Virus record (IMG/VR): IMGVR_UViG_3300005731_000127
Span: 19,660 to 83,659 of that record
Reading direction: 5' to 3' (one strand)
Length of the DNA stretch: 64,000 nt
Origin: a virus
Part shown: positions 17,894 through 20,301 of the stretch, one piece after another
Layout: the number at the start of each line of letters is the position of its first letter
How positions within the stretch are numbered: the stretch's first letter is position 1
The notes under the pieces: model-generated
What the model saw: only the letters and a program-made list of their open reading frames with translations
Database searches by the model: none
What the model was told of the DNA's origin: nothing
Position numbers and translations under genes: made by a program

Positions 17894-18023
17894 TAGCCAC
17901 TTTTTTTTGCGTTGCTATGCTACCGTTACATCACACCCCCGTAGTTTTTAATGGGGGCGGAAGGATTCGAACCTCCACAAGTTCTTTTACAGAGAATTGC
18001 TAATAATTTGCTGTAAGTGGCTA
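17894..18023 (-). ncRNA. YrlA-like Y RNA #1 (permuted tRNA module plus Tyr-type anticodon hairpin)
   Basis: Terminal stem TAGCCACTT/AAGTGGCTA, ACAGCAAATT motif, TTCT-CTGTAAA-AGAA, then T-arm, loop-closed acceptor stem, D-arm. Confidence 0.8.
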
Positions 18024-18025
18024 TA

Positions 18026-18101
18026 TGTGATTGGTAGGGCTTGATCCTACATTACGAGAGGCTCTATAACCAATATTGCGTTTTCATTAAACTACAATCA
18101 C
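18026..18101 (-). ncRNA. tRNA-like RNA without a canonical anticodon arm
   Basis: GTGATTG/CAATCAC acceptor, D-arm, GTAGG/CCTAC T-stem. Confidence 0.55.
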
Positions 18102-18105
18102 AAAA

Positions 18106-18179
18106 TGCCGCTGGTGGGAATCGAACCGCACACATCTCCCAGTAAAACGTGGGAGGCTCTACCGTTGAGCTACAGCGAC
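18106..18179 (-). tRNA. Atypical tRNA with 8-nt anticodon loop (CGTTTTAC; possibly Lys-like)
   Basis: Canonical D-arm GCTC-AACGGTA-GAGC; CTCCCA/TGGGAG stem; bulged T-stem. Confidence 0.55.
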
Positions 18180-18280
18180 TTGTGATAGTCTCTCCTATCA
18201 GTCACGTCCTATCACTTTTGGGTTGCATACCCCGCTATCCCTGCCGGGAAACATGACTTCGACGTTCAAGGGTCCGTTTC

Positions 18281-19930
18281 TTATACTTCTACAAGATGCA
18301 GAAGCTCTTGATCCATTGCTGCATTGAACAAGTCCGCAGCAGTTTCAATTTTTCCGTCCATGATGAATTTCACGTTCGAGGCTGAGTATCCAGACATGTA
18401 GAATACGTTTCGTGTATTTCCGAATGTCTCGAATTTAGTTCCACTTCTTCCTCCATAAAACGAATTAGGGATATTCCATAGTACGATCTTAAACGAGTTA
18501 ACATAGTCGTCTGAAAATCCCGCGTTTCTTAGCTTTCGCAATGCAGACTCTACATTAGTCTTTCCTAAATCTGCCGGATTAAATTCTCCGTCACTGATAC
18601 ACAGAATTCCTTCTGGAAAATCAGCTTCTGGAGTTCCGGAGTTTAACAAGTCGCAGAAAAGACTGATAACACTTTGGAAGTTTGTTCCGCCATAAGAATT
18701 ACCTCTGTCGTTATGCCATTTTTCTGATGGCGTTCCGCCTCTCCATTTTTTCATTGCCGCTTTATTTGCAAATTCAATATAGTGATCAGTAAAATCACCA
18801 GTCAAGAATTCGTTGAAGTATAAAGCAATCGCCTTAGAAACATCGTATGATGAATACTTAGTTCCGGTTGCTGTACATTCCATTGATGACGAAGTATCGC
18901 GAACAACAATAAATCGAGTTAAGTTTTCGCTATCCTTAGCTTTATTAACAATTTCGTAAAACTGCTTATCGACAGTCTTTGTGAAATTCGCATCATGGTT
19001 AAAATTTAGCTCACAAAGTAGTTCGTGAACATAACCAGTATACTTAACTGTTTCTTCTTTGTCAACCCATCCTGAGTATTTATCTGACAATCCTTGGTTT
19101 TTCAAGAATTTGCTTCTAACAAGAAGATTTAATGCACGACCATGAATTTTAGCAAAGTCGATCTTGTCAAATTTTGACTGAGAAATCAACTGCTGCCACT
19201 CATGAGCGGTTCCGCTAGACTTAAGTTTGCGGTATTTTTTGTAAGTTCTGCCATCGTTTTTCTTTCCGAATAGCCTAGAACAAATCCACTTAGCAATTTG
19301 GTTATTTGCTTCAGCTTCAATTGTTGTAACTTGTGAGTTAGAACGGATTTGCGGCAAATACTTCTTCATCAAGTTGACTGTTTTGTCATTCTCAAGTAAA
19401 GAAAGAAGCAGATCACCGAACCTTGACCAGTTCAAAATACTACCAGACCAGTCATGGTAAACCAAGTCAGCACGCAACATCACAATCAGGTCTTTACAAG
19501 ACCCAGCCGATAAGAAGAGTCCAATGTTTTTCCAGAAAAGACTTTCATCTTTTTGGTGCAACCAGATCATTCTCATGATTGATTCGTGCTTGAGTTCCGC
19601 ACCAGACTGAGCCTCTTTAGTCTTAATGCCCATCCCGATAATGTCAGTCTTACGACTAATCATTCTCATGTAGATAGTAAACTTAACAAAAAGTTCCGGA
19701 TTATCCGCGAACAATACAGAACAATCTTTAGCGATATCGGAATATCTACGTGGAGATTTGTATTCTCCAAGCTTACCAAACTGGTCTACATATTCGTTTC
19801 CAGTCGTCGAAAATTTTTCCGCACCGTTACCACTTAGTGTACGAGCGGAGTTTTTCATTCCGGCGTTGACGAATGAGTTGTTCGAAGTTTGCGTGCTTTT
19901 TCTTTTAATTGTTCTCTTTGTGTCAAACAT
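18281..19930 (-). CDS. DUF2828-family Ro60/TROVE-like protein with C-terminal vWA domain
   Basis: N-terminal helical region (NGA..FSTTGN..VDQF, KKYLP, KKYRK) and vWA MIDAS motifs VVRDTSSSM, GGTNFQ, CISDGEFN, IVLWNI. Confidence 0.8.
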   Translation of the reverse strand: MFDTKRTIKRKSTQTSNNSFVNAGMKNSARTLSGNGAEKFSTTGNEYVDQFGKLGEYKSPRRYSDIAKDCSVLFADNPELFVKFTIYMRMISRKTDIIGMGIKTKEAQSGAELKHESIMRMIWLHQKDESLFWKNIGLFLSAGSCKDLIVMLRADLVYHDWSGSILNWSRFGDLLLSLLENDKTVNLMKKYLPQIRSNSQVTTIEAEANNQIAKWICSRLFGKKNDGRTYKKYRKLKSSGTAHEWQQLISQSKFDKIDFAKIHGRALNLLVRSKFLKNQGLSDKYSGWVDKEETVKYTGYVHELLCELNFNHDANFTKTVDKQFYEIVNKAKDSENLTRFIVVRDTSSSMECTATGTKYSSYDVSKAIALYFNEFLTGDFTDHYIEFANKAAMKKWRGGTPSEKWHNDRGNSYGGTNFQSVISLFCDLLNSGTPEADFPEGILCISDGEFNPADLGKTNVESALRKLRNAGFSDDYVNSFKIVLWNIPNSFYGGRSGTKFETFGNTRNVFYMSGYSASNVKFIMDGKIETAADLFNAAMDQELLHLVEV

Positions 19931-19961
19931 TTTGTTCTCCTTGTGAGGTTCCTAAAAAATC

Positions 19962-20015
19962 AGATTACGTTTTATTTTTACCAAAAAAATTTTTATAATT
20001 TGCTGATTGTAATCT
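19962..20015 (-). ncRNA. Mini Y-like RNA #2
   Basis: AGATTAC/GTAATCT stem, TCAGCAAATTAT motif, AU-rich hairpin with TTGGTAA (Thr GGU-like) loop. Confidence 0.65.
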
Positions 20016-20020
20016 TATAC

Positions 20021-20142
20021 GGATTTCGTTTTTCGTTGCTCTACCAATTGAGCTACCTCACCTTGAAAGCAAAAGCGATGAGGATTGGACTCGAACCAAT
20101 AACCTACGGCGTGAAATGCAAATAAATTGCTGTATGAAATCC
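20021..20142 (-). ncRNA. YrlA-like Y RNA #3
   Basis: GGATTTC/GAAATCC stem, ACAGCAATTTAT motif, GC-ATTTCAC-GC (Glu-type loop), T-arm ATTGG-TTCGAGT-CCAAT, closed acceptor CCTCATC/GGTGAGG, D-arm GCTC-AATTGGTA-GAGC. Confidence 0.82.
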
Positions 20143-20147
20143 TTTAA

Positions 20148-20232
20148 TACTTCTGGAGGGAGTTGCACCCATTGATATCTACCCCACTGTTTTATATCGC
20201 TGGCTTCGTAGACCAGTGTGGGAACCAGAAGC
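20148..20232 (-). tRNA. Non-canonical tRNA-Arg(ACG), D-armless, 9/3-like
   Basis: CTGGT-CTACGAA-GCCAG; 3-bp T-stem; long V-arm. Confidence 0.7.
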
Positions 20233-20240
20233 AAAAAAAC

Positions 20241-20301
20241 AAGTCTCATTATTAAAAAATTTTACAGATTTTCTTTTTAAATAATTTGCTGTATGAGACT
20301 T
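20241..20301 (-). ncRNA. Mini Y-like RNA #4
   Basis: AAGTCTCAT/ATGAGACTT stem, ACAGCAAATTAT motif, perfect anticodon hairpin AAAAT-CTGTAAA-ATTTT (Tyr GUA). Confidence 0.75.

Follow-up and report, generated by a model that had tools for sequence, protein, structure and literature searches.

Why should a phage gene for a protein of the DUF7788/DUF2828 type be bracketed by four small elements that look like RNAs and share parts with tRNAs? The question is posed by a 64-kb stretch of DNA (the window, whose numbering is used throughout), which belongs to an IMG/VR viral contig of 83,659 bases with an estimated completeness of 62%. A first-pass annotation had described the gene product as Ro60-like and the elements as Y-like RNAs that each display an anticodon stem-loop. 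The analysis presented here points to a Ro60 paralogue with partner RNAs that are built on a recognition module of their own, here called the handle, and that carry a modular, tRNA-derived cargo. This reading is considered probable.

The elements lie where they had been annotated. The exact string CAGCAAWTTAT occurs four times in the window, always on the minus strand, and nowhere else, and a script that looked for a stem just 5' of CAGCAA pairing with downstream sequence returned four terminal stems of differing sequence, 9, 7, 7 and 9 bp long (Table 1, where the elements are named handle RNAs A to D). A covariance model, R1, was built from 11 minimal elements, two of them from the window, so that those two matches are partly by construction; it has four matches in the window, at 61.7, 50.2, 31.6 and 25.9 bits, the next best being 17. 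A broader model, R2, finds the same number on the whole 83.7-kb contig at 58.9, 51.7, 49.6 and 40.1 bits, with 15 as the next best.

The four RNAs share their ends and differ in what the ends enclose. Minimal RNA B consists of a 7-bp stem with AAUCAGCAA and a weak inner hairpin of A-U pairs only. Minimal RNA D has a 9-bp stem, ACAGCAA and an inner hairpin of 5-7 A-U or G-U pairs (fold z-score -2.6) that closes the loop CUGUAAA, also present in RNA A. The two long forms, A and C, contain a T arm, a loop-closed acceptor stem and a D arm, as had been described, and these are matched by YrlA or tmRNA models. In RNA A, a 9-bp closing stem, ACAGCAA and an A-rich 3' side surround a whole tRNA cloverleaf that is permuted between the D arm and the anticodon arm. 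Read base by base, the order is anticodon arm (AUUCU-CUGUAAA-AGAAC), a variable loop of 4-5 nt, T arm (GGAGG-UUCGAAU-CCUUC), a 7-bp acceptor closed by a 12-nt loop, U8-G9 and a 4-bp D arm. tmRNA models match the T arm and acceptor (17929-17976), and when the element is re-permuted computationally ARAGORN reports tRNA-Tyr(gta) in 686 of the 727 detections listed. RNA C has a 7-bp stem, AUACAGCAA, a weakly closed 7-nt loop AUUUCAC and a module of the YrlA type (T arm, loop-closed acceptor, D arm), which aligns with positions 23-87 of the 114 in the Rfam YrlA model (20032-20108). A tRNA identity for RNA C, and for most long elements of the relatives, was dropped, as the ARAGORN "anticodon" shifted with the placement of the junction.

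The display of an anticodon stem-loop, claimed for every element, is convincing in two of the four. In RNAs A and D the loop CUGUAAA, which is that of tRNA-Tyr, obeys the anticodon-loop rule (C32, U33, A37, A38) and is closed by a stem of 4 bp in A and 5-7 bp in D. It is weak in the other two: the "Glu" loop of RNA C has two Watson-Crick pairs and one G-U as its sole closure, and the "Thr" loop of RNA B stands on a weak A-U stem, where the best hairpin (UUUGGUA) has U rather than a purine at position 37.

Elements of the same type occur on the gene's strand in close IMG/VR relatives, with five copies at each of the loci L001 and L003 and eight at L004. When 11 minimal elements were aligned, the 7-bp closing stem was paired in every one, and six of its seven positions showed compensatory changes. 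In 43 sequences the stem is 99.7% paired and all seven pairs show compensatory changes, as compared with 26-42% pairing in slid controls; the covariation that had been expected is thus found, and so is the proposed constancy of CAGCAA. C1, G3, C4 and A6 are present in 43 of 43 sequences, A5 in 42 and A2 in 40, and the terminal G of the handle in all 43. The 5' side of the consensus reads UAA-RR-NNN-C, one to three free bases, CAGCAA, A and U; the 3' side, after the variable middle, reads six or seven A, C or A, then G-NNN-YY-U and G-U/A. At the DNA level the ends run UAAG/UAAA ... YUG(U/A), and the minimal forms measure 54-70 nt. Most members (about 70%) lack a tRNA-like domain and are typically about 55-70 nt long. 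Two handles of relatives enclose an ordinary, unpermuted tRNA: L052 2933-3052 (Rfam tRNA, 53.4 bits at 2961-3033) and L038 5487-5604 (52.6 bits at 5528-5588). An inner sequence, UUUGCGGAUAA, is common to elements of Salmonella phage RPN213 (L028 4029-4086) and Mycobacterium phage LilDestine (L029 3943-3996), and GGUAAA or GGAUAA strings akin to it recur in other members, including RNA B of the window (UGGUAAAAA); this may be a second conserved type of cargo.

The protein encoded between the elements belongs to a large group. Its relatives also match PF11443 (DUF2828); one search gave about 2000 matches, another 1426 clusters at 50% identity. An AlphaFold2 model built from 20 sequences has a predicted local distance difference test score (pLDDT) of 82 and a predicted template modelling score (pTM) of 0.82. 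Comparison of this predicted fold with the PDB by Foldseek, a check that the first-pass annotation had proposed, gave Ro60/TROVE structures for all of the 12 best matches (9kop, 9nfa, 2i91, 9l5y and 1yvp among them), followed by vWA domains. The Ro60 matches (E 1.6e-8 to 3.7e-6, template modelling scores up to 0.55-0.57, 10-13% identity) extend over 517-595 aligned columns, nearly the full length, and include the Xenopus and human proteins and the Ro60 of Thermus phage phiLo. The metal ion-dependent adhesion site of the C-terminal vWA domain, D345, S347 and S349 (DxSxS), T416 and D447, is invariant in 19 sequences of 28-54% identity. At 22-25% identity, tblastn finds a mycobacteriophage "Ro-like RNA binding protein" and genes annotated "DUF2828" or "RNA-binding protein" in many phage families; the ESM Atlas returned only the protein's own viral DUF7788/DUF2828 clusters and no eukaryotic lead. 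The evidence thus supports a Ro60-like character of the 549-aa protein in its modelled fold and through distant kinship, but does not place the protein in the Pfam family TROVE.

Closing stem and CAGCAA together define a modular RNA family, which accompanies the DUF2828/DUF7788 gene in very distant phages. R1 found elements that were absent from its training set, each adjoining a homologous gene. Leptolyngbya phage Lbo-JY46 has five handles in tandem directly 3' of the gene; in Listeria phage AG20 three occupy the gap that precedes the gene, and an RtcB ligase is encoded 1.2 kb downstream; and a Felix O1-type Salmonella phage has four in the tRNA cluster after the gene. Handles also stand beside the gene in Bacillus phage MrDarsey, Staphylococcus phage Alsa_3, Campylobacter phage F374, Mycobacterium phage LilDestine and the cyanophage Synechococcus phage B3. 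In all of these phages the handles are on the gene's strand. Applied to 59 further viral loci, R2 gave 144 matches at E<=0.1, distributed over 37 of them and without exception on the gene's strand. Each positive locus has 1 to 11 copies, and arrays of up to 11 lie downstream of the gene; at locus L111 a group I intron (5040-5255; Rfam RF00028, 91.9 bits) follows the handle array by about 400 nt. A further 33 R2 matches, again all on the gene's strand, come from 11 contigs of bacterial metagenome-assembled genomes, which are possibly phage contigs. In five complete named phage genomes (657 kb) R2 has 20 matches at E<=0.1, all of which share the gene's strand; one weak match falls inside the gene, and the other 19 flank it at distances of up to about 2.7 kb. 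As the model was trained partly on these loci, what informs is the lack of matches in the rest of the genomes.

This distribution bears on the simplest alternative, that tRNA operons contain such hairpins or repeats as spacers, which have no connection with the protein and whose loops arise by chance from A/U-rich sequence. The elements do lie in tRNA clusters, their inner hairpins are A-U rich, and the folding z-scores are modest (-1.4 to -3.0). However, the matches track the DUF2828 gene and its strand in unrelated phage families and are missing from the remainder of the five complete genomes, which carry tRNA clusters as well. The single-stranded hexamer is invariant, and the Y-U-NNN-A-A signal of the 7-nt loops, described next, vanishes on reversal of the sequence. 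Chance hairpins are thus regarded as a very improbable explanation.

The loops were analyzed across the family with a pattern set in advance, YUNNNRN in a 7-nt loop other than a T loop, closed by a stem of at least 4 bp. It is present in 12 of 43 elements of a first set (3.3 in dinucleotide shuffles) and in 48 of 140 elements of a second, independent set (6.5 expected), while the stricter CUNNNAA with a stem of at least 5 bp, chosen after the first set, occurs 22 times in the second (0.29 expected); the sequences within each set are related, so these shuffle counts overstate the significance. Among 130 minimal elements, hairpins with stems of at least 5 bp have a 7-nt loop in 64 cases against about 17 expected. 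Loop sizes are otherwise enriched only at 9 nt (37 against 16) and 11 nt (25 against 14), which are read as the same loop with its closing pairs unpaired. Loop positions 1, 2, 6 and 7 are mostly Y, U, A and A. YUNNNRN is found in 36 of the 130 (24 sources) as compared with 2 in a control in which the sequences were reversed, so that every hairpin was retained and its loop turned around. The commonest "anticodons" of the second set are UUU (10 of 49) and UGU (5), then GAA, GCA and UGG (3 each). A cargo resembling the anticodon stem-loop is, in statistical terms, a real feature of the handle family.

The closest known systems are those of Ro60 (Rsr in bacteria) and its Y RNAs; the comparison set comprised YrlA (Rfam RF02553), YrlB, Deinococcus Yrn1 and the phiLo RNAs Yrl1 and Yrl2. 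Could the locus be an ordinary phage Ro60 with ordinary YrlA or Y RNAs, and hence nothing new? YrlA-like RNAs lie beside Ro60 in 22 phages (PMC4201824), phiLo Ro60 binds two Y-like RNAs, Yrl1 and Yrl2 (PMC12135203), and the T/acceptor/D module of RNA C is matched by the Rfam YrlA model at 37.2 bits. The likeness extends to a predicted ring of TROVE-like repeats with a vWA domain, to partner RNA genes that adjoin the protein gene on the same strand, to an end-pairing stem next to a conserved unpaired motif and to a link with RNA-repair genes. Some handle RNAs also have the T arm, loop-closed acceptor and D arm of YrlA (two of the four in the window, not the minimal two).

The recognition sequence is different. 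YrlA binds Ro through GNCGAAN0-1G (PMC4201824), and the known bacterial and phage Y RNAs are recognized through this motif or through CGAA in a stem-bulge-stem (PMC4201824, PMC12135203); this Ro-binding motif is absent here, and all four window elements have (N)ACAGCAA at its place, so that handle and YrlA motif differ. No element attains the 69-bit gathering threshold of YrlA, either in the window or in the loci of 20 relatives, and the best score seen among relatives is 42 bits; Rfam at gathering thresholds reports no YrlA and no Class I RNA in those 20 loci, only tRNAs, a tmRNA and a group I intron. Unlike Y RNAs, handle RNAs occur as several to eleven genes per locus, mostly without the tRNA-like domain; about a third to a half have an anticodon-stem-loop look-alike, and some have a complete tRNA body, permuted or not. 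RNA A goes beyond the YrlA plan in that it is a complete permuted tRNA body. The protein, which matches DUF7788 and not TROVE, likewise departs from Ro60. Literature searches found no paper on the function or RNA partners of DUF2828, DUF7788 or PF11443, only incidental mentions. The papers searched on TROVE, Y RNA, RNA repair, phage and anticodon nucleases yielded no description of a CAGCAA handle, and the pairing of protein and RNA was found neither there nor in Rfam. That the locus is a familiar YrlA system is accordingly most improbable.

A second likeness is to the Class I RNAs of dictyostelid amoebae (RF01414). These RNAs, about 60 nt in length, begin with AAG and finish with CUGU; a terminal stem of 6 bp, whose sequence is free, joins the two ends, and an 11-nt motif, CCUUACAGCAA, adjoins its 5' arm (PMC7919456). 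They are reported to be unique to Dictyostelia and of unknown mechanism, with a eukaryotic DUSE promoter about 60 nt upstream and the RRM protein Rnp1A as the known binder (PMC7919456). Minimal handles likewise measure about 60 nt, pair from end to end in a short stem (6-7 bp in the two groups) that is free in sequence and, at the DNA level, begin with AAG and finish with CUG(U); their unpaired motif, which follows the 5' arm immediately, ends in ACAGCAA, and the rest is variable and A/U-rich. ACAGCAA is shared with the Class I motif, including its near-invariant C6, C9, A10 and A11; the first four bases of that motif, CCUU with the invariant U3, are not. RF01414 matches the window at 31.0 bits (RNA B, end to end) and 16.3 bits, and 13 elements of relatives, end to end, at 26.8-39.3 bits. 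The end-to-end matches all fall exactly on handle elements and on the right strand, and every score is below the gathering score of 41.5. Apart from tRNA, tmRNA and YrlA, RF01414 is the only one of 4227 Rfam models that matches the elements repeatedly. Unlike the Class I genes of Dictyostelia with their DUSE promoter, the handles are phage genes in a tRNA operon of bacterial type. The likeness may reflect common descent or convergence. A literature search on Ro or TROVE proteins in Dictyostelium brought up papers on vault/TEP1 only.

Some of the elements may act in cis. In seven relatives (L038, L039, L041, L043, L049, L050 and L057), whose genes start near positions 2400-2501 of the respective loci and whose proteins are 45-57% identical, the 5' arm of a complete handle contains the start codon: the arm is AAG-AUGUUU, followed by RACAGYAA, and its partner strand, ACAUCUG, lies 50-60 nt downstream and forms 7 of 7 pairs. 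The opening codons, MF(N/D)SK, thus have a second reading as the handle (RAC-AGY-AA = Asn/Asp-Ser-Lys). The start region in the window (ATGTTTGACACAAAG..., 19930-19876) is a decayed version with ACACAA and 5 of 7 pairs. The start-codon handle of the relatives is a likely autogenous translational operator and hints that the protein recognizes handles. Because it encloses the start codon in seven relatives, autoregulation is credible for the family, and it may also operate in the phage of the window. A wider claim would be that the elements act mainly as operators or processing signals in the mRNA and tRNA precursor, by which the protein or an RNase controls the expression of the gene and its neighbours, and not as stable trans-acting RNAs. 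The start-codon handles fit it, as do the end of RNA B 31 nt upstream of the start codon, the abutment of elements and tRNA genes with gaps of a few nucleotides and conserved UAA...UG flanks, and the lack of a dedicated promoter or terminator in 17400-21400, where promoter-like sites are fewer than in shuffles and no terminator is convincing. For these two reasons a transcription unit is not definable there. On the other hand, up to 11 copies are arrayed downstream of the gene, whole tRNA bodies and anticodon-loop mimics would be superfluous for an operator, and the known Ro60 partners are stable RNAs. As the main explanation cis action appears improbable; the cis and trans readings are compatible and can both be true.

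The preferred reading is that of a Ro60 paralogue with partner handle RNAs. From the computed features (the predicted fold, the RNA family with its covariation, the co-location and the anticodon-loop signature) we infer how these RNAs might be bound, processed and used. The gene would encode a distant Ro60 paralogue, a helical-repeat ring with a vWA domain, and the four flanking elements would be its partner RNAs, together a branch of the Ro/Y-RNA ribonucleoproteins with a different recognition module. The ends of each RNA would close in a 7-bp stem of free sequence, with the unpaired (U/A)ACAGCAA on the 5' strand and an A-rich run on the 3' strand, and the protein would bind this handle, by analogy with Ro60 and the stem-bulge-stem of Y RNAs. 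The variable middle would be a cargo of tRNA parts, be it a look-alike of the anticodon stem-loop, a T arm, a T/acceptor/D module of the YrlA type or a complete permuted tRNA. The RNAs lie in the tRNA operon and probably arise by cleavage of its common precursor. With low confidence, we place their most likely role in the conflict over tRNA damage: the particle may present tRNA look-alikes to tRNA-recognizing enzymes, the candidates being host anticodon nucleases, modification enzymes and the phage RNA ligases or RlaP, and may serve as a decoy or a tether.

Several observations weigh against this interpretation. The likeness of the fold to Ro60 is moderate (template modelling score 0.35-0.57, root-mean-square deviation 8-13 A), the protein has no match to Pfam TROVE (PF05731), its sole Pfam match being DUF7788, and a profile search against PDB sequences returned chance matches only and no Ro60. 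No handle was matched within 2.5 kb of the gene in 22 of the 59 viral loci, mostly those with proteins of 33% identity or less, in 20 of 21 loci of a group at 41-44% identity, which has one match in all, or in Aeromonas phage PX29. As to the cargo, the stems of the anticodon-like hairpins are mostly A-U, one of the two patterns was chosen with the first set in view, and related sequences inflate the shuffle comparisons. The 7-nt loops of the U33 type, which the first-pass annotation expected to be conserved, are statistically real across the family, but orthologous elements of the nearest relatives do not retain them, an argument against a single fixed target.

Phage-encoded tRNAs counter tRNA-targeting defences, and the T4 enzymes Pnkp and Rnl1 repair tRNA-Lys cut by PrrC; the anticodon loops of tRNA-Lys (UUU) and tRNA-Tyr (GUA) are targets of known defence nucleases. 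The handle RNAs may resemble these systems as an answer to attack on the anticodon loop, and T4-type RNA ligases are encoded on the contig. Unlike phage tRNAs, they do not function as tRNAs, and the majority consist of no more than an anticodon arm within a handle. A bolder proposal is that the ring and the handle RNAs form an anticodon-arm display system and, linked with it, that the Class I RNAs are a eukaryotic branch and partners of a Ro-like protein; we rate this as possible and rather unlikely. Look-alikes of nuclease-attacked loops would then be held on a scaffold, Tyr twice in the window, and in the relatives mostly Lys UUU, followed by Thr, Cys, Phe and Pro. They could divert, inhibit or sense anticodon nucleases, or else act as baits through which repair enzymes are led to damaged tRNA.

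Table 1. Handle RNAs, the protein gene and other features of the window (R1 and R2, covariance model scores)
Feature	Position	Strand	Match or remark
DUF7788/DUF2828 protein, 549 aa	18281..19930	-	Pfam PF25043, E 1.3e-7, residues 341-533
Handle RNA A, long form	17892..18025	-	R2 51.7 bits, E 3e-9; closing stem 17894-18023; CAGCAAWTTAT 18003-18013
Handle RNA B, minimal, 58 nt	19960..20017	-	R1 61.7 bits, R2 58.9 bits; closing stem 19962-20015; CAGCAAWTTAT 19995-20005
Handle RNA C, long form	20019..20144	-	R2 40.1 bits, E 1.5e-6; closing stem 20021-20142; CAGCAAWTTAT 20122-20132
Handle RNA D, minimal, 65 nt	20239..20303	-	R1 50.2 bits, R2 49.6 bits; closing stem 20241-20301; CAGCAAWTTAT 20281-20291
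Spacer between RNAs D and C, 98 nt	20143-20240	-	Fold z-score -1.4
tRNA-like gene uncalled by ARAGORN	18026-18101	-	Rfam tRNA 38.8 bits
tRNA with 8-nt anticodon loop	18106-18179	-	Rfam tRNA 49.5 bits; ARAGORN anticodon "tttt"
tRNA, anticodon CTA	36232-36306	-	ARAGORN, labelled Pyl
Permuted (two-piece) tmRNA	26092-26352	-	Rfam RF04321, 68.9 bits (threshold 47)
vWA_4-domain protein	26834-27832
PTH2 peptidyl-tRNA hydrolase	15251-15547	-
NAMPT	40373-42088	-
Rnl2-type RNA ligase	46167-47168	-	PF09414
RlaP	51078-51944	-	PF10127
T4 Rnl1-type RNA ligase	56820-57899	-	PF09511

The surroundings of the gene are those of a tRNA operon on the minus strand (Table 1). ARAGORN finds 23 tRNA genes in the window; a tRNA-Tyr gene was not found on the contig, which is incomplete. 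RNA-repair genes, to which the first-pass annotation had alluded, are present in the form of two RNA ligases and RlaP, and enzymes of NAD salvage are likewise encoded on the contig. The permuted tmRNA adjoins the vWA_4-domain protein. The spacer between RNAs D and C has no CAGCAA; it shows a 9-bp end stem (GCUUCUGG.../...CCAGAAGU) and a hairpin resembling a T arm, GGGUGCAACUCCC, and in the closest relative, L001, just 27 nt separate the elements orthologous to D and C. One tRNA of the operon has one extra base in its anticodon loop (CCCAC-GUUUUACU-GGGAG) and could be a four-base decoder, a frameshift suppressor or a Lys-like tRNA with an altered loop. Directly between it and handle RNA A lies a tRNA-like gene whose anticodon-arm region measures 22 nt, as against the 15 expected by the model. 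Another tRNA, with the anticodon CTA, is of the amber-suppressor type and may point to reassignment or suppression of a stop codon in this phage.

DUF2828/DUF7788 proteins form a large family that is found in phages of many hosts, including well-studied phages of Listeria, Staphylococcus, Salmonella, E. coli and Campylobacter. A conserved RNA partner would give this family a testable role and would extend the Ro60/Y-RNA principle to a second recognition code. The anticodon-arm cargo would tie the system to the contest between phages and bacteria over tRNA cleavage, and the likeness to Class I RNAs offers a concrete hypothesis on the protein partner of an abundant RNA class.

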